From: an uncultured Acidobacteriota bacterium
Lineage (GTDB): Bacteria; Acidobacteriota; Vicinamibacteria; Vicinamibacterales; Fen-181
Assembly: GCA_963844875.1 (NCBI GenBank)
Contig: CAWJPZ010000003.1
Span: forward strand, 645,200 to 709,199
DNA: 64,000 nt
Direction of reading: 5' to 3'
Part shown: positions 651 to 61,065 of the stretch, in pieces
Layout of the letters: each line of letters opens with the position of its first letter
Numbering within the stretch: the first letter of the stretch is position 1
Made by a program: the position numbers and the translations under genes
Notes under the pieces: generated by a model
The model's database searches: none
The model's input: only the letters and a program-made list of their open reading frames with translations
Told to the model about the DNA's origin: nothing

Positions 651-723
651 GGCAGCAGCGGCCTGGCGGCCGTGACAGGAGGAACCAGGACGTCGCGAGG
701 GTCCACGCGAGTACACTATCGCC

Positions 724-1773
724 GTGGACGTCGCGCTCTTCGATTTTCATCTTCCCACAGAACAGATCGCCCAGCGGCCCGCGCCCGACCGCGAGTCGTC
801 GCGCCTGCTCGTCCTCGACCGCGCCTCCGGCAGGGTCGCGGCGCACACGACCGTCCGCGAACTTCCCCATTTCTTGGCGCAGGGCGACCTGCTCGTCGTC
901 AACGACACGAAAGTGTTCCCGGCCCGGCTGCTCGGGCGTCGCGACCCCAGCGGCGGAGCGGTGGAATGCCTGCTGGTGCGGCGGCTCGAAGGCGATCACT
1001 GGGAAGCGCTGATGCACCCGGGCCAGAAGCTGCATCCCGGCGCGCGCGTCGTGTTCGAAGGCGCGGGACACCGGCTGCACGCCGAAGTGCTGCAGCAGCA
1101 CTTTCACGGGCGCCGGACGGTCCGCCTCTCGAGCGAGAACGGGTCCGACGTCGACCGGGTGGTCGACGCGATCGGCCACGTCCCGCTGCCTCCGTACATC
1201 CACCGGCCGGACGATGACGCGGACCGCCAGCGGTACCAGACGGTGTTCGCGCGGGAGCGGGGATTGATTGCCGCCCCGACGGCCGGACTCCACCTGACGC
1301 CCGGCCTGCTGGCCCGCCTCTCGGCAGCCGGCGTATCGAGAGCTGCCGTCACGCTGCACGTCGGCTATGGCACGTTCAAACCGGTGAGGGCAGAACAGGT
1401 CGAGGACCACCGCGTCGACCCCGAGCCGTACGAGATCTCGCCTGCCGCGTCGAACGCCATCAATGCGGCGCTCGATCAGCATCGTCGGGTCGTCACGGTC
1501 GGGACGACGACGACGAGAGCGGTGGAGACGGCCGCCGTGAACGGCGGCGGGCGCGTCGCGCCCGGTGCGGCCGTCAGCGAACTGTTCATCTACCCGGGGT
1601 TTTGCTTCCAGGCGCTTGGCGGCCTCCTCACGAACTTTCACCTCCCCAAGTCGTCGCTGCTGATGCTGGTCTGCGCGTTCGCCGGCCGGGAGGCGGTCCT
1701 GGAGGCCTATCGCGAAGCGGTGTCGCGCGGCTACCGGTTCTACAGCTACGGTGACGCGATGTTGATCCTGTGA
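724..1773 (+). CDS. queA: S-adenosylmethionine:tRNA ribosyltransferase-isomerase
   Basis: 349-aa ORF with a GTG start. N-terminus 'VDVALFDFHLPTEQIAQRP', 'LLVVNDTKVFPARL', 'PLPPYI' and C-terminal 'YRFYSYGDAMLI' are characteristic of QueA. Confidence 0.95.
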   Translation: MDVALFDFHLPTEQIAQRPAPDRESSRLLVLDRASGRVAAHTTVRELPHFLAQGDLLVVNDTKVFPARLLGRRDPSGGAVECLLVRRLEGDHWEALMHPGQKLHPGARVVFEGAGHRLHAEVLQQHFHGRRTVRLSSENGSDVDRVVDAIGHVPLPPYIHRPDDDADRQRYQTVFARERGLIAAPTAGLHLTPGLLARLSAAGVSRAAVTLHVGYGTFKPVRAEQVEDHRVDPEPYEISPAASNAINAALDQHRRVVTVGTTTTRAVETAAVNGGGRVAPGAAVSELFIYPGFCFQALGGLLTNFHLPKSSLLMLVCAFAGREAVLEAYREAVSRGYRFYSYGDAMLIL

Positions 1774-4357: not shown

Positions 4358-6276
4358 ACTCCACGCTCAAGAGTCTGCTGTTCTGGATGGTGCTGGTCCT
4401 CGTCGTCCTCCTGATCTGGAATTTCTCGACGAATTTCCAGCAGCGCGACAGCGTGGTCAGCTTCAGCGAGTTCATCGAAAAGGTCAACGGCGGCCAGGTC
4501 GCCTCGGTGACGATCACCGGGAGCGAGGTGACCGGCCTCTACAAGGCAGATAACCAGGCGTTCCGGACGTTTGCCCCGGCCCAGTACGAAGGACTGGCGA
4601 ACAAGCTCATCGAGAAGGGGGTGCAGGTCACGGCCAAGGAGCCGAGCGTCAGCCCCTGGTCCTCGATCTTCTACTCGTGGGCGCCGATCCTCCTGATGAT
4701 CGGGTTCTGGATCTTCCTGATGCGGCAGATGCAGAGCGGGGGCAACAAGGCGCTCTCGTTCGGCAAGAGCAAGGCGAAGCTCTCCTCGAGCGCGCAGAAG
4801 AAGGTGACGTTCAAGGACGTCGCGGGCGTGGATGAAGCGAAGGAGGAGCTGCAGGAAATCATCGAGTTCCTCAAGGAGCCGCAGAAGTTCCAGAAGCTCG
4901 GCGGCCGCATTCCCAAGGGGGTGCTGCTCATGGGCTCGCCGGGAACGGGCAAGACCCTGCTGGCCCGCGCGGTGGCGGGTGAAGCCAACGTGCCCTTCTT
5001 CTCGATCAGCGGTTCGGACTTCGTCGAGATGTTCGTCGGCGTCGGGGCGTCGCGCGTGCGCGACCTGTTCGAGCAGGGCAAGAAGAACGCTCCCTGCATC
5101 ATCTTCATCGACGAGATCGACGCGGTTGGACGGCACCGGGGCGCCGGTCTGGGCGGCGGTCACGACGAGCGCGAGCAGACGCTGAACCAGCTGCTGGTCG
5201 AGATGGACGGCTTCGAGTCGAACGAGGGCGTCATCCTGGTGGCGGCGACCAACCGTCCCGACGTGCTGGACCCGGCGCTGCTTCGCCCCGGCCGCTTCGA
5301 CCGTCGGATCGTGGTGAACCGTCCCGACGTCAAGGGCCGCGAGGGGATTCTCGGGGTGCACACCCGCAAGATCCCGCTCTCGGACGACGTGAACGTGAGC
5401 GTGCTGGCGCGCGGCACGGCGGGATTCTCGGGGGCGGACCTGGCGAACCTGGTGAACGAGGCGGCGCTCTACGCGGCGCGCTTCAACCAGAAAGTCGTGC
5501 GGATGCTCGACTTCGAGTTCGCCAAGGACAAGGTGCTGATGGGCACCGAGCGCAAGTCGATGATCATCAGCGACTCCGAGAAGCGGGTCACGGCGGTGCA
5601 CGAGGCGGGGCACGCCCTGCTGACCGTGCTGCTGCCGGGGGCCGACCCGATTCACAAGGTGACGATCATCCCCCGCGGGATGGCCCTCGGCCTCACGCAG
5701 CAGCTGCCCGTGGACGAGAAGCACAACCTCTCGCGGGCGTACCTGGAAGACCAGATTGCGATCCTGCTCGGCGGCCGCATCGCCGAGGAAATCACGACGG
5801 GCAACGTGACGACCGGGGCGGGGAACGACCTCGAGCGCGTCACCGACCTCGCTCGCCGCATGGTGTGCGAGTGGGGCATGAGCCAGTCGATGGGGCCGCT
5901 GACCTTCGGCAAGAAGGAAGAGCAGATCTTCCTCGGCCGCGAGATCGCCCAGCACCAGGACTACAGCGAGGACACGGCGATCAAGATCGACCAGGAGGTC
6001 AAGGGCATCGTCACGAAGCAGTACGAGCGCGCCCTGGCGGTGCTGACGGAACACCGCGACGAACTGGTGCGAATCGCCGACTCGCTGCTCGTCCAGGAGG
6101 TCCTCGACGGAGACCAGGTCCGGCGGCTGGCGGCGGGCGGGGCGCTCGAGGAGACCGGCACGGCGGCCGCGCAGGCCGCGCCGGCTTCGGACGACGAGGC
6201 CCGGGCGCGGCAGCGCGAGCGCTCGGCGGTCGTTTCGCCGCTGCAGCCAATCCAGAAGCCGGTGCACCAGGAATAG
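4354..6276 (+). CDS. ftsH: ATP-dependent zinc metalloprotease FtsH
   Basis: TTG start at 4354 after GGGGAGAAAGAG, overlapping the tilS stop. It has a TM segment, Walker A 'GSPGTGKT', SRH '[20 protein letters not shown]' and the zinc site 'HEAGHAL'. Confidence 0.95.
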
Positions 6277-15729: not shown

Positions 15730-16680
15730 TTAGAGCAGGTCGCCGAGCGGCCGCGGGACGATGTCGCGGAGTTCGGGATAGGTGTCGAGCATGGCCGGCC
15801 GGTACTCCCCGGTGACCGGCTGGCCGAGCTGGTGCTTCAACACCGTCGCATTCACCACCGACTTGGCCGCGAAGTGGTTGTTGAGATACAGGTACGCTTT
15901 TCGGACCTCCGGATCGACCGTCCGAGCGACGGCGGCGAACGGCCGCAACTCCTCCGGCGAGTAGAGGTAGTTGTACCGTTCCTCCGGCGCCTCGGGCGAC
16001 CACCACTGCGCCGCGTTCCGGCCGTGCAGCCGAAGGTAGTAGAAACGATCGGTGTTCGGCACGAGGTCCTGGCGGATCGACATGCGAAACTTCGGTTCGT
16101 CGATCTGCACCCACGCGGCGCTCGCGGAATCGAGCAGCTCCCGCGTCGCCGCGTGAGCGTCGCTCCAGGAGCGGTGCCGCAGTTCAACGGCGAGAGGGTA
16201 GTCGTGGAACGTGCGCAGGAGGCCAGCGAGGTAGTCGGTGCCGGCGGTGTCGGCATGGAAACCCGCCGGGAACTGCACCAGCACCGCACCCAGCTTGCCA
16301 CCCGCAACGATTGGCTCGAGTCCGGTGCGGAATTCGTCCACGTCGAATTGGGTCGGCTGCGGAAGCGCGCGCGGTCCGGAAGACGCGTCGACCGGCTGGG
16401 TCCCCCGTCCCACGGTCATCGGATGTGTGAACTTCTGGTGGAGCTTCACCGAGAACTCGAAGCCGCGCGGCGTCTGCTTCACCCACCGCGCCGTGGTTGA
16501 GGCGACCGGCGGGCGATAGAACGTCACGTTCACTTCGACGGTGTCGAAGTGCTCCGCGTAGTACGCCAGCTCTTCGCCGGCACGAAACCCTCCTGTCCCC
16601 CGGGGAGGATAGAAGATGCCGTTCCACGTTCCGCGGCCTGCGGGGTAGCTCCAGCCGGAGGTGCCGACGCGGACGTTCAC
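15730..16680 (-). CDS. DUF72 (UPF0759/YecE-like) protein
   Basis: 'VRVGTSGWSYPAGRGTWNGIFYP', 'YAEHFDTVEVNVTFYR', 'GAVLVQFP' and 'AVELRHRSW' match the DUF72 layout. The GTG start overlaps the queE stop (GTGA). Confidence 0.8.
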   Translation of the reverse strand: MNVRVGTSGWSYPAGRGTWNGIFYPPRGTGGFRAGEELAYYAEHFDTVEVNVTFYRPPVASTTARWVKQTPRGFEFSVKLHQKFTHPMTVGRGTQPVDASSGPRALPQPTQFDVDEFRTGLEPIVAGGKLGAVLVQFPAGFHADTAGTDYLAGLLRTFHDYPLAVELRHRSWSDAHAATRELLDSASAAWVQIDEPKFRMSIRQDLVPNTDRFYYLRLHGRNAAQWWSPEAPEERYNYLYSPEELRPFAAVARTVDPEVRKAYLYLNNHFAAKSVVNATVLKHQLGQPVTGEYRPAMLDTYPELRDIVPRPLGDLL

Positions 16681-17318
16681 ACGCCTCTCCTGTCCGGGCT
16701 CCAGATGTATTTGTGCACCTGCAGCTGCACGCGAACGGGAAGCCGATCGGCGAGGACCCAGGCCGACAAGTCGGCAGGGGCCAGGCGGCCGTGGACCGGG
16801 GAGAACAGGACGCTCGACACCCGCCCGACCAGGCCGTGGCGCTCCACCACGTCCTTCGCAAACGCGTAGTCGGCACGATCCGCCAGGACGAATTTCAGCT
16901 CGTCGCTGGGGCGCAGCTCCTGGAGATTCTCCCAGTGGATCCTGGCCGACTCGCCGCTTCCCGGGCACTTGATGTCGACGATTCGCACCGCGCCGGACGG
17001 GACGCGGCCGATCGGAAGGTGGCCGCCCGTTTCGACCAGCACCTGGAAGCCTTCGTCGAGGAGACGTTCCATCAGGGGGTAGGCATCCGGTTGCAGGAGC
17101 GGCTCGCCGCCGGTCACTTCCACGAGACGGCAGCCGTAGGATTTCACCTCCTCGACCACCTCGTCGACCTCGCGCTTGCGTCCCTCGTGGAACGCGTAAG
17201 GAGTGTCGCACCACGAGCAACGGAGGTCGCACGCCGTCAGGCGCACGAAGACGCACGGCAGCCCGGCATAGCTCGACTCGCCCTGGATCGAATGGAAGAC
17301 CTCGTTCACCGTCAGCAT
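16677..17318 (-). CDS. queE: 7-carboxy-7-deazaguanine synthase (radical SAM)
   Basis: '[39 protein letters not shown]' (CxxxCxxC) and '[11 protein letters not shown]'. The ATG at 17318 lies inside a longer shadow ORF. Confidence 0.9.
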
Positions 17319-17399
17319 TCTTCCGTATTGTAGTGCAGGCCACGCGGCCGCCGGGCGCGTGCGATGGCATAATGCTCGGGAGCCGGACAGGAGGTGAGC

Positions 17400-17741
17400 G
17401 TGGCCAGGCCCGTGTTCTACTGCAAGCCGACTTGAACGACCTGCCGCAACGCCAGGAGTTACCTGGACGAGATGGGGGTCGAGGTCGAGTTCAAGGACAT
17501 CGTGAAGGAACCGCCGCCGCGCGCGTTCCTGGAGCAGCAAGTGGACGCCCGGCGTTTCCTCGACTTCGTCAGCAAGCGGAGCCCCGTGTGGAAGGAACGC
17601 CCGCTGCCGGCCTCGAAGAAGGAAGCGATCGACCTCATGCTCGAGCAGCCAAACCTCATCCGGAGGCCGATCCTGATCAAGGGTTCGCGCGTGCTCTTCG
17701 GATTCGACAAGGACGAGTACAAGGCGGTGGCTGGGAAGTGA
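17400..17741 (+). CDS. ArsC/Spx/YffB-family thioredoxin-fold protein with an in-frame TGA (17433-17435) at the first Cys of CxxC; candidate selenoprotein
   Basis: AGGAGG at 17389-17394, then GTG 17400. The frame reads [26 protein letters not shown] and runs into the 17472..17741 ORF ('[29 protein letters not shown]'). There is a hairpin 17 nt after the TGA. Confidence 0.6.
17450..17469 (+). promoter_or_regulatory. SECIS-like hairpin downstream of the in-frame UGA
   Basis: CCAGG (17452-17456), loop AGUUA, CCUGG (17462-17466). The stem extends by G51-C68 and C50-G69 with A67 bulged. The loop G lies 23 nt from the UGA. Confidence 0.35.
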
Positions 17742-18427
17742 TGTCAGCCGTGTCACGCGCGATCGTCCTGCTCAGCGGCGGGCTCGACTCGGCGACGGCG
17801 GCCGCAATGGCGACGGCCGAAGGATTCGAGTTGTACGCCCTGACGGTGGCCTACGGCCAACGGCACCAGTGCGAGATCCACGCGGCCCGGGCAGTGGCGC
17901 GCGCCCTCGGCGTGGTGCGGCACGTGGAGCTGCAGGTCGACCTGTCCGCGTTCGGCGGCTCGGCGCTGACGGCCGCCATCGACGTCCCCAAGGACCGGGA
18001 CCTGGATGCGGGCGACATCCCCTCGACGTACGTGCCTGCTCGCAACACGGTGTTCCTGTCGCTGGCCCTGGCCTGGGCGGAAACCCTCGACGCCCGGGAC
18101 ATCTTCATCGGCGTCAACGCGCTCGACTACTCGGGCTACCCGGACTGCCGGCCGGAGTTCATCCAGGCGTTCGAAGCGCTGGCGGGGGTGGCCACCAAGG
18201 CCGGCGTGGAAGGGGCCCGGGTGAAGGTCCACGCCCCGTTGATCAGGATGACGAAGGCAGAGATCATCCGGCGCGGGCTCGAGCTGGGCGTGGACTACGG
18301 GCTCACTCACAGCTGCTACGACCCGGATTCGGCCGGCCGCCCTTGCGGCCGGTGCGACAGCTGCCTGCTTCGGGCCAAGGGGTTTGCGGAAGCGGGCGTC
18401 GTCGACCCCGTGCAATCCACACGATAA
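17741..18427 (+). CDS. queC: 7-cyano-7-deazaguanine synthase
   Basis: '[15 protein letters not shown]', 'TYVPARN', '[12 protein letters not shown]' and C-terminal 'CGRCDSC'. The ATG overlaps the upstream TGA (TGATG). Confidence 0.95.
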
Positions 18428-18434
18428 GTTGCCT

Positions 18435-19620
18435 ATGCACTCCCGTCTCTATTACGAAGAGCCTCCGGCGCACGGAATTCGACGCCGTGGTCACCGGCGG
18501 CTCGACACTCGACGGCCGCCCTGCCGTCACGCTCGACACGAGCGCCTTCTACCCGACTTCGGGTGGCCAGCCGAACGACCTGGGTGTGCTCGGCGAGGCT
18601 CGCGTGCTCGACGTGATCGAGTCGGACGCAGGCGAGGTGTGGCACGTCCTCGACCGCGAGATGGCGCCCGGCACGCCCGTGCACGGCGTCGTGGACTGGG
18701 TGCGGCGCTTCGACCACATGCAGCAGCACACCGGGCAGCACATCCTGTCGGGGGCGTTCGACCGGCTCCATCGCGCGCGCACCGTCGGGTTTCATCTCGG
18801 CGCCGTCGTCTCGACGGTCGACCTGGCCATCGAGCTGTCATCGACGGACATCGCCGCGGCCGAGGCCGAATCCAACCGGATCGTCTGGGAAGATCGCGCG
18901 GTGGGAATCCGGTTCGTGACCGAATCCGAGGCGGCGGCGCTGCCCCTCCGGAAGGAGCCCGCGCGCGGGGGCACGCTCCGGGTGATAGAGGTTGAGGGCT
19001 ACGACCTCTCGGCCTGCGGCGGAACCCACGTCGCACGGACCGGAGCGGTCGGGCTCATCGCCGTCCTGTCAGCCGAGAAGTTGCGGGGCGGCACCCGGAT
19101 CGAGTTCGTGTGCGGCGGCCGGGCGCTGCGATCCTTCCGGATGTTTCGCGATGCCGTCGCCGGCTGCATTCGTCACGTCTCCGTCGCGCCCGAGGAATTG
19201 CCTGCCGCGGTCGAACGGCTGCAGGCCGACGGGAAGGACCAGCGAAAGGCGGTCAAGGACCTGCAGGAACGCCTCGCGGGCTTCGAGGCGGCGGCGCTCG
19301 CCGCCGCGGCCGAACAGGTGAGCGGGGGTCGCCTCCTCGTTCAGGCGATCGACGGCCGCGACCAGGCGGGGCTGAAGGCGATTGCAGCGGCGATCTGCAG
19401 TGCGCCCGGCTTCCGCGTGGCGTTGTTCTCGACCGCGCACCCGCACCTGGCGGTCGTCGCCCGTTCGAAGGACGTTGACGTGGATTGCTCGGCAGCGCTG
19501 AAGAAGCTCGTCGCGGAGTTTGGCGGCCGCGGGGGCGGCAGGCCGGAACTCGCCCAGGGCGGAGGCCTGACCGGCGACCTCGCGCGGATTCTCGCCGCAG
19601 CGGGGCAGGCCTTGCGCTGA
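18435..19620 (+). CDS. alaX: Alanyl-tRNA editing protein AlaX-L (tRNA_SAD plus DHHA1-like C-terminus), with the frame broken once within 18453-18475
   Basis: 'MHSRLYYEE' is in the ATG 18435 frame. The rest ('TEFDAVV...', 'HMQQHTGQHIL', 'CGGTHV', 'GGRGGGRPELAQGGG') is in the 17869..19620 frame. Confidence 0.8.
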
Positions 19621-26177: not shown

Positions 26178-26199
26178 TGGGATGGTATGATATGAACAT

Positions 26200-26613
26200 A
26201 TGAGCAGTCTTTCATACGATCTGCCAACCCCGACCGAAGATGCGTGTGACGTCTTCGTCGCGGACCCTGAGCGGGTCGCCCGAGTGCGGGCGGCGCTCAT
26301 CGGCCCGCGGCAGATCGAACGGCTCGCCGAAACCTTCCGCGCGCTCGGCGACCCGACCCGGGTGAGGATCCTCGACGCCCTGTCCCACGACGAATTGTGC
26401 GTGTGCGACGTGGCCACCCTGATCGGGACCAGCGAATCGGCCGTCTCGCACCAACTCCGCCTGCTGCGCAACCTCCGGCTGGTCCGGGCCCGCCGCGAGG
26501 GACGCATGATGTTCTACTCGCTGGACGACCAGCACATCGTCATGCTGTTTCAGCAGGGCCTCCGCCACGTGAAAGAGGCGGAAGCGGGCCGGGAAGGGGC
26601 GGGCGGGCGATGA
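26200..26613 (+). CDS. ArsR/SmtB-family metalloregulatory repressor
   Basis: 'LAETFRALGDPTRVRILDAL..ELCVCDVA...SAVSHQLRLLR' (winged HTH with a CVC alpha3 site). Confidence 0.9.
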   Translation: MSSLSYDLPTPTEDACDVFVADPERVARVRAALIGPRQIERLAETFRALGDPTRVRILDALSHDELCVCDVATLIGTSESAVSHQLRLLRNLRLVRARREGRMMFYSLDDQHIVMLFQQGLRHVKEAEAGREGAGGR

Positions 26614-28757
26614 GCACGCGACAAGAAGCCCCGGCCTGCGCGGTGTGCGAGCTGCACACCGAGTCGGTGTATCGCATCGAGGGCATGGACTGCCACGAGG
26701 AAGTGCAGCTGCTCGAGCGCCGTCTCGGGCACCTTCCAGGTCTCGAGCGGTTCTCGGCGGACATTCTCAACCAGCGCCTGCGCGTGACCCACGACGCCGC
26801 CCGTCTGTCGGCCGCCGCGGTGGCGGAGGCCGTGAACGGCACCGGCATGCGGGCATGGCTGGAGCGCGAACACCCCCTGCCGCTCAGTTCTCAATCGTCG
26901 TCGAACCGGGTCCGTCTCCTGTTCCTGTCGGGTGCCGGCCTGGCGGCAGGCGAAGCGTTCCACTGGTTCGGCGCGCCCTCGCCGCTCGTCGTCACGCTCT
27001 TCCTGGTCTCGATCGTCGCCGGCGGCGTGCACACCGCGCGCCGAAGCTGGACCGCGCTGCGCGCCCGCTCGCTCGACATCAACGCATTGATGCTGGTCGC
27101 CGTCGTCGGCGCTGCCGCCATCGGCGAATGGTCGGAGGCGGCGGCCGTCATCTTCCTCTTCGCGCTCGCACAGTGGCTCGAAACCCGGAGCATGGACCGG
27201 GTCCGCCACGCGATCCGGACGCTCATGGACCTGACCCCCGCCGACGCCCTCGTCGTCAGGGACGGCGTCGAACTGCGCGTGCCGCTCGACGACCTCGCCG
27301 TGGGCGACACCATCGTGGTGAAGCCGGGCGAGCGGATTCCCATCGATGGCCGGGTCGCGGTGGGGGAGAGCGACGTGAACCAGGCGCCCATCACGGGCGA
27401 ATCGCTGCCGGTGGAGAAGAACCCGGGCGACGAGGTCTTCGCCGGAACGATCAACGGCCACGGCGCGCTCGAAGTCCGCGTGACGAAGCTCCGCCGCGAC
27501 ACCACGATGGCGCGGATCATCAACCTGGTGGAGGTGGCCCAGGCCCAGCGGGCGCCGTCGCAGAGCTTCGTCGAGCGCTTCGCCCGGGTTTACACCCCGG
27601 CGGTGATCGGGATCGCGGTCCTCGTCGCCGCCGTGCCGCCCCTGTTCCTCGGACAGCCGTTCTTCGACTGGCTCTACCGCGCCCTGGTGCTGCTGGTCAT
27701 CTCCTGTCCCTGTGCGCTGGTGATCTCGACCCCGGTGTCGATCGTGTCCGCGCTGGCCGGCGCCGCGCGGCGCGGGATCCTGATCAAGGGAGGCATCCAC
27801 CTGGAGCGAGCCGCTACGATCAACGTCGTCGCCTTCGACAAGACCGGCACGCTCACCCACGGCCGCCCCGAAGTGGTGGACGTCATCCCGCTGAACGGTG
27901 TCGGTGCGTCCGAGGTCCTTCGGCTCGCTGCCGGCCTCGAATCGCGCTCCGAGCACCCCCTGGCGCAGGCGGTCATCAGGCGGGCGCAGCGCGAAGGGAC
28001 CATGCCGGCGGCCGGCGAAGGATTCCGCGCCCTGCCGGGGCTCGGCGCGGAGGCCACGGTGGACGGCCAACCGGTCCTCGTCGGCAACCACCGGTTGTTC
28101 GAGGAGCGCTCGCTGTGCTCGGCGGCGGCCGAGGACCACCTGGCCGCACTGGGGCGCGCCGGACGCACCGCCGTGATGGTCGCGAGCGGCGGCCGAACGG
28201 TGGGGATCATCGGGGTGGCGGATTCCACACGCGAGTCGGGCGCCGGGGCGGTCTCGGCACTCAGGACGGGTGGCGTGTCTCGCGTGGTCATGCTCACCGG
28301 TGACAACCGGCGGACCGCCGACACGATCGGCGCCTCCCTGGGGCTGGACGAGTGGCGCGCCGAACTGCTTCCCGCCGACAAGCTGTCGGCCGTGGGCGAC
28401 CTGCAGCGCCGGCATGGACCCGTGGCGATGGTGGGCGACGGCGTGAACGACGCGCCCGCGCTCGCGGCCGCGAGTCTCGGCATCGCGATGGGCGCGGCAG
28501 GCACGGACGCGGCGCTCGAGACTGCCGACGTCGCGCTGATGTCCGACGACCTCATGGGTGTCCCGGACTTCCTCCGCCTCGGGCGCGACACCGTCCGGAA
28601 CATTCGAACGAACATTGCCGTCGCGCTCGGGTTGAAGGCGCTGTTCCTCGGCCTGGCAATCGCCGGCCTCGCGACGCTGTGGATGGCTGTCGTGGCCGAC
28701 ATGGGCGCATCGCTGCTGGTGATCGCGAACGGCCTGAGGCTGCTCAAGGCGAAGTAG
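26610..28757 (+). CDS. Heavy-metal-translocating P1B-type ATPase (Cd/Zn/Co-type)
   Basis: N-terminal HMA-like domain 'IEGMDCHEEV', 'CPCALVISTP', 'DKTGTLT' and 'GDGVNDAPAL'. The ATG overlaps the arsR stop (ATGA). Confidence 0.95.
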   Translation: MSTRQEAPACAVCELHTESVYRIEGMDCHEEVQLLERRLGHLPGLERFSADILNQRLRVTHDAARLSAAAVAEAVNGTGMRAWLEREHPLPLSSQSSSNRVRLLFLSGAGLAAGEAFHWFGAPSPLVVTLFLVSIVAGGVHTARRSWTALRARSLDINALMLVAVVGAAAIGEWSEAAAVIFLFALAQWLETRSMDRVRHAIRTLMDLTPADALVVRDGVELRVPLDDLAVGDTIVVKPGERIPIDGRVAVGESDVNQAPITGESLPVEKNPGDEVFAGTINGHGALEVRVTKLRRDTTMARIINLVEVAQAQRAPSQSFVERFARVYTPAVIGIAVLVAAVPPLFLGQPFFDWLYRALVLLVISCPCALVISTPVSIVSALAGAARRGILIKGGIHLERAATINVVAFDKTGTLTHGRPEVVDVIPLNGVGASEVLRLAAGLESRSEHPLAQAVIRRAQREGTMPAAGEGFRALPGLGAEATVDGQPVLVGNHRLFEERSLCSAAAEDHLAALGRAGRTAVMVASGGRTVGIIGVADSTRESGAGAVSALRTGGVSRVVMLTGDNRRTADTIGASLGLDEWRAELLPADKLSAVGDLQRRHGPVAMVGDGVNDAPALAAASLGIAMGAAGTDAALETADVALMSDDLMGVPDFLRLGRDTVRNIRTNIAVALGLKALFLGLAIAGLATLWMAVVADMGASLLVIANGLRLLKAK

Positions 28758-28782: not shown

Positions 28783-30094
28783 TCACTTCCTGGTCAGGTA
28801 GACCCTCGCCACCCGCAGCCCGTCGAGGGCTTCGACGCGGAGCATCCGGCCCTCGACCTCCACGCGGTCGCCGAGCCGTGCGCGACGGCCCAGTTGACCC
28901 AGGACGAAGCCTCCGAGCGTGGTGTACACGTCCTCGTCGATGTGCAGGCCGAACTGTTCGTTGACGTCGGTCGTCAGCGCCAGCCCGTCGACGAGGGCGG
29001 ACCCGTCAGGCAGGACCGAGATGCGGGTGCGCCCGGCGTTGAACTCGCTTCCCACCTCCCCGACGATTCGCTCCATCAGCCCCTCGAACGTCACCAGGCC
29101 GGCGGTGCCGCCGGTACTCGTCGATCACCACGGCGTGGTGCGTCCCATGCCGCTTCATTTCCTCCAGGACATCGTCGGCCTTCAGCGTCTCGGGGACCGT
29201 CATTGCCTCGCGCAGGTAGTCGGTGACGTGAAAGCTCTCCGCGGGCTGCTTCAGCGCGGGAAACACGTCCTCCACGTGAAGGAACCCGAGGACGTCGTCG
29301 ACACCCTTTCCGAAGACCGGCAGCCACGGGTGCGGCTGCCGCGCCACCTGGTCGATCAATTCCGGCAACGTGGAGCCCGCCCGGATGCCGTTCATCTCGG
29401 TGCGCGGCACCATCACCTGCCCGGCGGTGAGGTCGCCAAAGCCGAAGACACGGTGAATCATCTGCTCTTCGTCTTCCTCGAGCACGCCGGCTTCCTGGCT
29501 CGCGGTGACGAGCATCTTCAGCTCTTCCTCGGAGTGCACCATCGAATGACCGCTCGGCGGCCGCAGGCCGAGCAGTCGGACCAGCCGCGTTCCCAGGCCG
29601 TTCAGCAGCGCGATGAACGGCCAGAAGGCTCGCATGAACAGCCGGGTCGGCGCCGTCACGAGGAGCGCCGTCTTTTCGGCGTGCTGCAACGCGATCGTCT
29701 TCGGCGCGAGTTCGCCGCAGACCACGTGCAGCGACGTGATGAACGCGAACGAGACCCCGAAGGCAATCGAGTGGGCACCCGTCCTGCCCCACTCGACCGG
29801 CAGGTACGCGAGCAGCGGCTGGATGGTGCTCGCGACGGCCGGTTCTCCCAGCCACCCGAGGCCCAGGCTGGTCATGGTGATCCCGACCTGCGTGGCGGCG
29901 ATGAACCGGTCGGGCGAGGTGATCGCTTCCCTCACGCCGACCGCCCGCCGGACGCCTTCGGCAATCAGTTGATCGATCCGGGTCTTGCGGACCGTGACGA
30001 TCGCGAACTCCGCGGCGACGAAGAAGCCGTTGGCGAGGACGAGCGCGAAGACGGCCGCCATCCGCCAGGCGATATCCATCGGCACCTGATCCAT
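28783..30094 (-). CDS. CNNM/CorC/TlyC-family protein (DUF21, CBS pair, CorC_HlyC), with the frame broken once at about 29113
   Basis: The sequence reads '...HHAVVIDEY' and then shifts frame. Removing one G/C next to GTAC 29114-29117 restores the canonical 'DEYGGTAGLVTFEGLMERIVGEV'. The C-terminal part is the 28783..29094 ORF. Confidence 0.9.
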
Positions 30095-60229: not shown

Positions 60230-61065
60230 CTACCCCCCGAAGTTGTGGCTGCGGGTCAGGAAGTAGCCGATGGGCACGAAGTTGAACAGCACGATGGCAA
60301 ACCCAAGGGCCGACAGGTAGGCGGCGCGCTTCGCGCCCCAGCCGAGCCGGCGGGTGTAGAGCGCGAACGTGTAGACCGCCCAGCAGACGGCGGCGCCGAG
60401 AATCTTCGGGTCGGCCAGCGACATCGCCTGGACCCTGGGGTCGAAGACCGGGCCGCTCTTGGCCTCGGCCGCCCAGATGGTGCCCACGAGCACGCCGACG
60501 GTCAGGAAGATCCAGCCGACCGTCACGCTGCGCGCGTTCATGAGGTCGAGCGAGTCGAGCGAGGGCAGGCGCTTGTAGAAGAAGCCCAGGTGCTTCGCCT
60601 TGATTTCCTTGAACAACAGCACGTAAGTGATCCCGATGACGCACGCGAGCGCGAAGCTGGCGTAGGCAAAGAGCAGCGACGCCACGTGGACGCCGAACCA
60701 GAGGGCTTTCGAGGATCGGCACGCGGCGCTCCACCACCGGGTTCAACGCCCGGATGGTCTGCAGCGCGACGAGCAGCGGGACGATGAAGACGCCGAGCGC
60801 GCGCTCCTCGGTCGTCATCTCCATGTAGAGATACGCGAGGGCGAGCAGCCAGACGAACGTCGAGATCGCCTGCGTCGTGCCCGCAATCGGCACGTGTCCC
60901 GCCTCCATCGTCTGCATGCCGATGACGAAGGTGTGGGCGAGGGCGCCGGCCGCAAGGAAGGCGGTCGCGGCGCGGCCGACCCCCGCATTCCGCGTGGCGA
61001 AGTGAATGGCGTAGAGGACGCCGGCCACGGTACACGACGAGGGGAAACACATTGGCGTTCAACAT
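60230..61065 (-). CDS. Cytochrome c assembly family (CcsA/HemX-like) membrane protein, with the frame broken near 60698-60706 and possibly again at about 61029
   Basis: The C-terminal part is the 60230..60685 ORF ('WIFLTVGVLVGTIWA...'). The middle part is in the 59856..61052 frame. The ATG 61065 frame ('MLNANVFPLVVY') joins that frame if one base next to GTAC 61030-61033 is removed. It sits in the HemX position beside hemA. Confidence 0.65.

Follow-up and report, generated by a model that had tools for sequence, protein, structure and literature searches.

In a 64,000-nucleotide (nt) stretch of DNA from an uncultured Acidobacteriota bacterium of the order Vicinamibacterales (contig CAWJPZ010000003.1; hereafter, the window), the reading frame of a small ArsC-like protein at positions 17400-17741 is interrupted after 11 codons by TGA. 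The question raised by this locus is whether that codon is a stop, an error or, as an earlier note on this DNA had proposed, the site at which selenocysteine (Sec) enters the redox motif of the protein. Here we analyze the frame, its counterparts in related genomes, the RNA structure that follows the TGA and the family to which the product belongs. The comparative sequence evidence makes it highly probable that 17400-17741 is a genuine Sec-encoding gene.

A reading frame through TGA and the hairpin behind it

The gene lies on the forward strand. A Shine-Dalgarno sequence, AGGAGG (17389-17394), can be read directly 5 nt ahead of a GTG codon at 17400, from which the frame runs for 11 codons (17400-17432), meets TGA at 17433-17435 and then stays open to a second TGA at 17739-17741. 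This last codon overlaps the ATG of the next gene, queC, as TGATG (17739-17743). Read through the first TGA, the coding sequence specifies 113 residues with Sec as residue 12 (U12), the opening position of a U-T-T-C motif whose second Cys, the predicted resolving residue C15, is encoded by TGC at 17442-17444. The open reading frame (ORF) track and the public annotation start at the ATG at 17472-17474, giving a product of 89 amino acids (aa) from which the 11 N-terminal codons are absent. On re-reading, the Shine-Dalgarno sequence, the GTG and the stop-free frame beyond the TGA were found at the coordinates that the earlier note had given for them.

A tblastn scan in which each species was represented by a single genome gave 80 loci, each from Vicinamibacterales or another Acidobacteriota metagenome-assembled genome (MAG), with alignments beginning at residue 1 in 80 genomes. 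The critical codon is TGA in 77 of these species-representative genomes and TGC in the other 3; the 77 genes, together with that of the window, constitute the 78 TGA (Sec-form) genes on which the counts below are based. The second Cys of the motif is encoded by TGC or TGT in all 78. A search over 5.8 billion proteins, of which the best 120 matches were listed, separates the listed homologues into two populations: full-length proteins of about 110 aa that are 62-74% identical to the window protein and are Cys forms, and closer relatives, 75-89% identical, that have all been called at 79-89 aa. Every full-length homologue listed carries the motif K-P-[ST]-C-T-T-C-R-N-A, in which the TGA column is occupied by Cys; this bears out the proposal that the TGA stands for the first Cys of a CxxC.

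The sequence ahead of the TGA behaves as coding sequence. Over the nine codons that precede it, entropy at the first, second and third codon positions is 0.41, 0.44 and 1.04, so that variation is mainly third-position, and downstream of the UGA the corresponding values are 0.21, 0.20 and 1.09. The K-P-T just before the TGA is near invariant among the TGA genes, and the preceding codons can be matched one by one to the N-terminal residues of the Cys-form proteins. Because these upstream codons are under coding-type, purifying selection, we conclude that they are translated. In a neighbor-joining tree of 128 Sec and Cys forms the two states are interleaved, with at least 14 switches and Sec at the root; the protein is short and the tree of low resolution, so that these figures are indicative only. 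An interleaved pattern of this kind has been described for other Sec/Cys families (PMC1794560).

The second line of evidence is an RNA hairpin, CCAGG-AGUUA-CCUGG, at 17452-17466, with a stem formed by 17452-17456 and 17462-17466, a loop at 17457-17461 and an invariant G at 17458. It begins 17 nt after the TGA, and its loop G lies 23 nt past the A of that codon, in agreement with the position and spacing reported earlier. Within the gene it is translated as A-R-S-Y-L. The minimum free energy (MFE) fold of the window adds two pairs and a bulged A (17467), extending the stem to 17450-17469. The earlier note had included this extension in its description, and it does form in the window; among relatives the two added pairs form in only 55 of 77 and 34 of 77, and the element as conserved does not include the extended stem.

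The five-base-pair core, on the other hand, is paired in all 385 cells of an ungapped alignment of the TGA genes. Four of its pairs are invariant, and the closing pair co-varies without ever being broken (A-U in 65 genes, G-C in 11 and G-U in 1); RNAalifold independently recovers the same 17452-17466 helix. Codon choice within the hairpin is correspondingly narrow, with GCC in 78/78 genes, AGA or AGG for Arg in 78/78, AGT in 73/78 and CTG in 78/78, whereas the other Arg/Lys codon position is mostly CGN. Third-position entropy is 0.26 within the hairpin codons, against 1.04-1.27 for the coding sequence on either side. None of 15 Cys-form proteins has the Ser that AGT specifies, its place being taken by Glu, Gly, Asp, Ala, Thr, Val or Arg; since this residue is not shared by the Cys forms, the constraint on the hairpin must act on the RNA. 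Four of five distinct Cys-form genes (loci L021, L039, L081 and L083) have lost the hairpin, reading AAG GCN TTC CTG. In locus L016 (at about 6034-6070) a TGC Cys form retains the hairpin intact, a combination that suggests a recent Sec-to-Cys change.

Published limits for the bacterial selenocysteine insertion sequence (SECIS) are a loop of 3-9 nt, a stem of 4-16 base pairs, a UGA-to-loop distance of 16-37 nt and an MFE of at most -7.5 kcal/mol, with a G in the first two loop positions that is usually followed by G or U (PMC13188914). The hairpin of the window has a 5-nt loop, in which G occupies the second position ahead of a U, and a stem of 5 base pairs; the UGA-to-loop distance is 21 nt and the MFE of its 24-nt fold is -9.3 kcal/mol, inside the threshold. 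The bacterial SECIS geometry ascribed to it from inspection of the sequence can thus be retained, since loop, stem, G-U and spacing all fall inside the published limits.

Protein family and probable function

For profile searches the read-through product was used with Cys in place of the TGA. It matches the Pfam ArsC family (PF03960) over profile positions 1-78 of 79 with an E-value of 1.1e-15 (58.1 bits, against a cutoff of 24), and membership of the ArsC/Spx/YffB family, previously suggested from the C-terminal half, now extends to the full profile. The best NCBIfam model is TIGR01617 (Spx/MgsR, 'arsC_related'), at a borderline 75.7 bits for a cutoff of 75.05. The more specific models fail: NF002459 (Spx) gives 48 bits for a cutoff of 123, NF009210 (Spx-specific) 32 for 159, NF008107 (YffB-type ArsC family reductase) 43.4 for 121, TIGR00014 (ArsC proper) 39.8 for 106.05 and NF041106 (the catalogued ArsC-family selenoprotein) 24.4 for 85. 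Because these specific models all fail by wide margins, the profile evidence places the protein as a CxxC-type member of the superfamily that is an orthologue of no characterised member.

Structural comparison points in the same direction. For a 71%-identical Cys orthologue, AlphaFold gives a model with a predicted local distance difference test (pLDDT) score of 92, and the Foldseek template modeling (TM) scores of that model are 0.84 against 1RW1 (YffB), 0.81 against 3GKX, 0.74-0.77 against Spx proteins and 0.72 against 1I9D (E. coli ArsC). Sequence searches of the PDB return Spx, YffB and a 'putative ArsC' at E-values of about 1e-10 to 1e-11, Spx being the best, and E. coli ArsC as a weak match (5e-3). 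In alignments with the sequences that we take as references for the family, the TGA falls on Cys12 of ArsC and on Cys10 of Spx, and the second Cys on Cys13 of Spx.

The U12-T-T-C15 motif stands at the start of the first helix, and the protein is expected to cycle through a U12-C15 selenenylsulfide. On balance we favor, with some reserve, a thiol/selenol-disulfide oxidoreductase; a role as arsenate reductase or as Spx-type regulator is improbable. In the clade of the window an additional Cys is found at residue 8 (17421-17423), four residues before the Sec, in the sequence F-Y-C-K-P-T-U; 8 of 74 genes encode Cys here, most of the rest having Trp or Thr, and the Cys could be a third redox-active residue.

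A regulator is the functional alternative that fares best, albeit as an outside chance: the protein might be a Sec-containing, redox-sensing factor of the Spx/MgsR type that binds the C-terminal domain of the RNA polymerase alpha subunit and is not an enzyme. The ranking of TIGR01617 among the NCBIfam models, the presence of Spx proteins among the top PDB sequence and Foldseek matches and the Spx-like motif CxxC-R-K/N-A all speak for it. Both Spx models proper, by contrast, score far under their cutoffs, and the predicted structure is nearer to YffB than to Spx. The position of Gly52 in what we take to be the Spx sequence is occupied here by Arg, and the protein is shorter by a C-terminal tail of some 18 residues, which is a lead rather than proof. 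Selenocysteine is, moreover, usually found at catalytic rather than regulatory cysteine positions.

An arsenate reductase proper, that is, a Sec-containing and glutaredoxin-coupled ArsC, is a good deal less probable still. Source databases do name the relatives 'arsenate reductase', the Pfam family is itself called ArsC, and ArsC selenoproteins with a UxxS motif are already known. Against this stand the failure of TIGR00014, the weak match to E. coli ArsC and a motif that is UxxC and not CxxS. Equivalents of Arg60 and Arg94 are present when the protein is compared with the presumed ArsC sequence, but the loop carrying Arg107 is absent, and no ars genes are adjacent to the gene in the window or in its relatives.

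Decoding of the TGA

The reading that we favor is one in which translation would start at GTG 17400 and the UGA at codon 12 would be read as selenocysteine thanks to the mRNA hairpin at 17452-17466. As elsewhere among bacterial selenoproteins, the hairpin would bring SelB, loaded with Sec-tRNA(Sec), to the ribosome, and selenium would be incorporated at the head of the redox motif.

Several observations weigh against this reading. Neither the 64-kb window nor the 944 kb of related loci yielded selA, selB, selD or tRNA-Sec: ARAGORN, applied to the window and the 80 loci, found only one tRNA-Met, regular expressions for SelD and SelA motifs gave no real matches in six-frame translations of the 944 kb, and the annotation of the window, inspected by eye and with Pfam, contained no sel genes. 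The 24-nt fold of the relatives averages -7.3 kcal/mol (range -13.6 to -5.8) for a threshold of -7.5, an energy value that varies with the amount of flanking sequence folded, and a 60-nt fold in the window reaches a z-score of only -1.8. Around the locus, neither the SECIS models of Rfam nor any of its other families gave a match at E-values up to 10; at gathering thresholds Rfam gave nothing relevant, and no preQ1 riboswitch was matched. Finally, the oxidoreductase assignment is drawn from fold and motif.

The alternatives to this reading are all far less probable. It is very improbable that the 89-aa ORF from ATG 17472 is the real gene, the sequence upstream of it being a leader or encoding a short leader peptide and the hairpin being regulatory. 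This product is the one that public gene callers report for P0001 and its relatives, and a hairpin preceded by a short upstream ORF of 11 codons bears a superficial resemblance to an attenuator. However, ATG or GTG stands exactly 11 codons upstream of the TGA in 74 of the 78 TGA genes, whereas ATG is found at the position equivalent to 17472 in just one of them, and the public gene calls of the relatives choose differing in-frame starts to arrive at products of 79-89 aa. The ATG at 17472 is therefore not the orthologous, or the true, start, as the earlier note had surmised. The 89-aa product would also lack strand 1 of the fold along with the helix that bears the active site, matching positions 40-78 of the Pfam ArsC profile only, in its C-terminal half, and the codons that it leaves out are those that align with Cys-form N-termini and show a coding-type substitution pattern.

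A similarly slim chance is left to the proposition that the UGA is read through, though not as Sec, either by near-cognate insertion of Trp, Cys or Arg under stimulation by the hairpin or following a lineage-specific reassignment of the codon. Such a reading could draw on the absence of Sec machinery from the window and the 944 kb of related loci and on the small size of a hairpin that matches no Rfam SECIS. In this genome, though, UGA is an ordinary stop, for instance in this same gene (17739-17741) and in queE, which argues against reassignment. The recoded site is the catalytic Cys and alternates only with Cys, the signature of a Sec/Cys pair, and the hairpin combines a G-U loop with bacterial SECIS spacing. 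The phylum, furthermore, is known to decode Sec, selenoproteins having been recorded in Acidobacteria in a survey of 2006 (PMC1794560).

Least credible of all is that TGC was turned into TGA by faulty sequencing or assembly, or that the gene is a recent pseudogene, so that the true protein would be a plain Cys member of the ArsC family or would not exist: indel-type disruptions do occur elsewhere in the assembly, as in a ccsA-like gene near 60742-60760, and Cys-form orthologues exist, but 77 of the 80 species-representative assemblies, which are independent and were obtained with differing technologies, share the same TGA, the frame is intact on both sides of it and a conserved hairpin follows, so that a pseudogene, and a miscall, which the earlier note had already thought less likely, can now be regarded as excluded.

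Genomic setting and relation to known selenoproteins

The selenoprotein gene is divergent from queE, a radical SAM gene on the reverse strand (16677-17318), with which it shares an 81-nt intergenic region (17319-17399). On that strand queE is followed by a DUF72 gene (15730-16680, reverse strand), the two overlapping as GTGA at about 16677-16680, and queC (17741-18427, forward strand) lies directly downstream of the selenoprotein gene in a lineage-specific arrangement. The layout common across the order is PBP4(+), alaX(-), queC(-), queE(-), the divergent ArsC-like gene (+) and DUF72(+); in two Cys-form loci annotated with Pfam, genes for a peptidyl-prolyl isomerase (PPIase) and nth come next. 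In 70 of the 80 loci a divergent queE, identified in relatives by Pfam Radical_SAM, is located at most 1.5 kb upstream, most often at a distance of 50-250 nt from the Sec codon. In 74 of the 80 the next gene after the ArsC-like one is DUF72, which overlaps it by 4-8 nt in L081 and L083, and the pair resembles an operon.

In the window, and likewise in its closest relative (L001/L085), the order is DUF72(-), queE(-), ArsC-like(+), queC(+), alaX(+), PBP4(-). Comparison with the common layout identifies the placement between queE and queC as a local inversion of the divergent queE/ArsC-like pair, confined among the loci compared to the window and L001/L085. The inversion swaps the downstream partners, bringing queE next to DUF72 and the ArsC-like gene next to queC-alaX, and both junctions are tight start/stop overlaps. 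The earlier note had drawn attention to this placement and its TGATG overlap, which are real in the window but do not constitute a trait of the family. Other rearrangements, or relocation of the gene, are found in L004, L019, L048 and L077. In the long-read MAG L085 (positions 1764-2022; equivalent to L001) queC has been called at 179 aa, leaving a gap of about 250 nt after the stop of the ArsC-like gene, and the short call suggests a frameshift or a mis-called start. The window also contains queA at 676-1773 (forward strand), recognized by eye from its translation (...FYSYGDAMLIL) and 16 kb away from queE and queC, so that three queuosine-pathway genes are present at two places.

Adjacency to queuosine genes is weak functional evidence, because the whole block, unrelated genes included, is syntenic within one order. 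We regard as unlikely the more ambitious proposal that the Sec-containing ArsC-like protein and DUF72 form a selenium-dependent redox module for 7-deazaguanine (preQ0/queuosine) metabolism, or that the protein is the first selenocysteine-based Spx-like redox regulator. In the former case the two proteins could, for example, supply or recycle reducing equivalents for preQ0/queuosine metabolism. The synteny, however, is shallow, and alaX, PBP4 and nth are carried along with the block. A literature search on DUF72 returned only unrelated DUF72x papers.

Upstream of the start codon, a -10-like TAnnnT box ends 4-9 nt ahead of it in 65 of the 78 Sec-form genes, which suggests that the mRNAs of the genes with this box may be leaderless. 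A Shine-Dalgarno sequence of the GGAGG type is present in 11 of the 78, the clade of the window being among these 11. A promoter and terminator scan of 17150-17850 returned nothing that met its criteria; a candidate box, CATAAT, can be read by eye at 17368-17373.

No other in-frame Sec-TGA candidate besides 17433-17435 was retained in the 64-kb window. The TGA at 19618 is the alaX stop, that at 29127 is unconvincing and that at 61061 is an ordinary upstream stop before the frameshifted ccsA-like gene; across the related loci, the in-frame TGA candidates are all ordinary stops between same-frame neighbors. The ccsA-like cytochrome c assembly gene itself (60230-61060, reverse strand) is apparently split by a frameshift near 60742-60760, which fits the statement in the earlier note that disruptions elsewhere in the window are indels. 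Inspection by eye also shows an ArsR-family regulator gene overlapping the start of a heavy-metal P-type ATPase gene (26191-28757, forward strand). There is no ars operon in the window, and the ArsR/P-type ATPase pair is unrelated to the ArsC-like gene.

The locus has consequences for annotation. P0001 and every TGA-form relative among the protein matches listed have been cut to 79-89 residues, with loss of the active site, and no public gene call or source name among those matches includes the Sec codon or marks a selenoprotein. The NCBIfam model for ArsC-like selenoproteins misses this clade. Vicinamibacterales are common soil bacteria, and the presence of TGA in 77 of 80 genomes indicates that Sec use is the rule in this branch, a prevalence that bears on estimates of the soil selenoproteome and of selenium demand. 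The resulting data set, in which 78 Sec forms stand beside several Cys forms whose hairpins have decayed and one that has kept its hairpin intact, could help to define very small bacterial SECIS elements and to study Sec/Cys switching.

Comparison with known systems places both the RNA element and the protein close to familiar types. Like the bSECISearch consensus, the hairpin has a small loop with G in second position followed by U and a stem of at least 4 base pairs, and it lies within the coding sequence just after the UGA; it differs in lying near the lower size limit, its core having 5 base pairs, and in an energy that is borderline in many relatives. Among proteins of determined structure the best match is YffB (1RW1, Pseudomonas aeruginosa PA3664), of similar size at about 114 residues, which presumably has a single Cys and no CxxC, unlike the UxxC found here. 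The window protein resembles Spx/MgsR proteins (TIGR01617; 1Z3E, 3L78) in its fold, in an N-terminal CxxC that leads into R-[KN]-A and in the conserved motifs R-S and R-R-P. It differs from them in reaching the subfamily model only at its cutoff and, if our reference sequence for Spx is right, in the missing Gly52 equivalent and C-terminal tail. To our knowledge, Spx proteins are not known as selenoproteins.

ArsC-like selenoproteins as a class are not new, as the earlier note had acknowledged. They were reported from Desulfotalea and Desulfuromonas in the bacterial survey of 2006 (PMC1794560), and the Global Ocean Sampling (GOS) metagenomes yielded an 'Arsenate reductase 1, UxxS' and an 'Arsenate reductase 2, cd03032, UxxC' (PMC2398784). 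An 'Arsenate reductase-like protein, UxxC' appears in the prokaryotic selenoproteome reviews of 2022 and 2026 and is now tied to NF041106 (PMC9312934, PMC13188914). MDE3003982.1 and MAM02162.1 are catalogued ArsC-like selenoproteins of the UxxC type. A literature search on Vicinamibacter and selenocysteine returned no paper linking Vicinamibacteria with selenoproteins. The GOS and 2006 proteins resemble the present one in being Spx-like ArsC-family domains with UxxC that were found through Sec/Cys homology and a bacterial SECIS; compared by description only, they differ in origin, coming from marine metagenomes and Deltaproteobacteria, whereas the present clade belongs to soil Vicinamibacterales. 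With NF041106 (ArsC_rel_Se_1) the window protein has in common the ArsC fold, an N-terminal UxxC and a Sec/Cys pair at the first Cys, but its score of 24.4 bits for a cutoff of 85 sets it in a separate clade of the superfamily, one that the model misses. This kind of protein is accordingly already catalogued, and the clade that fails NF041106 is a further member of it, not a new mechanism or system.

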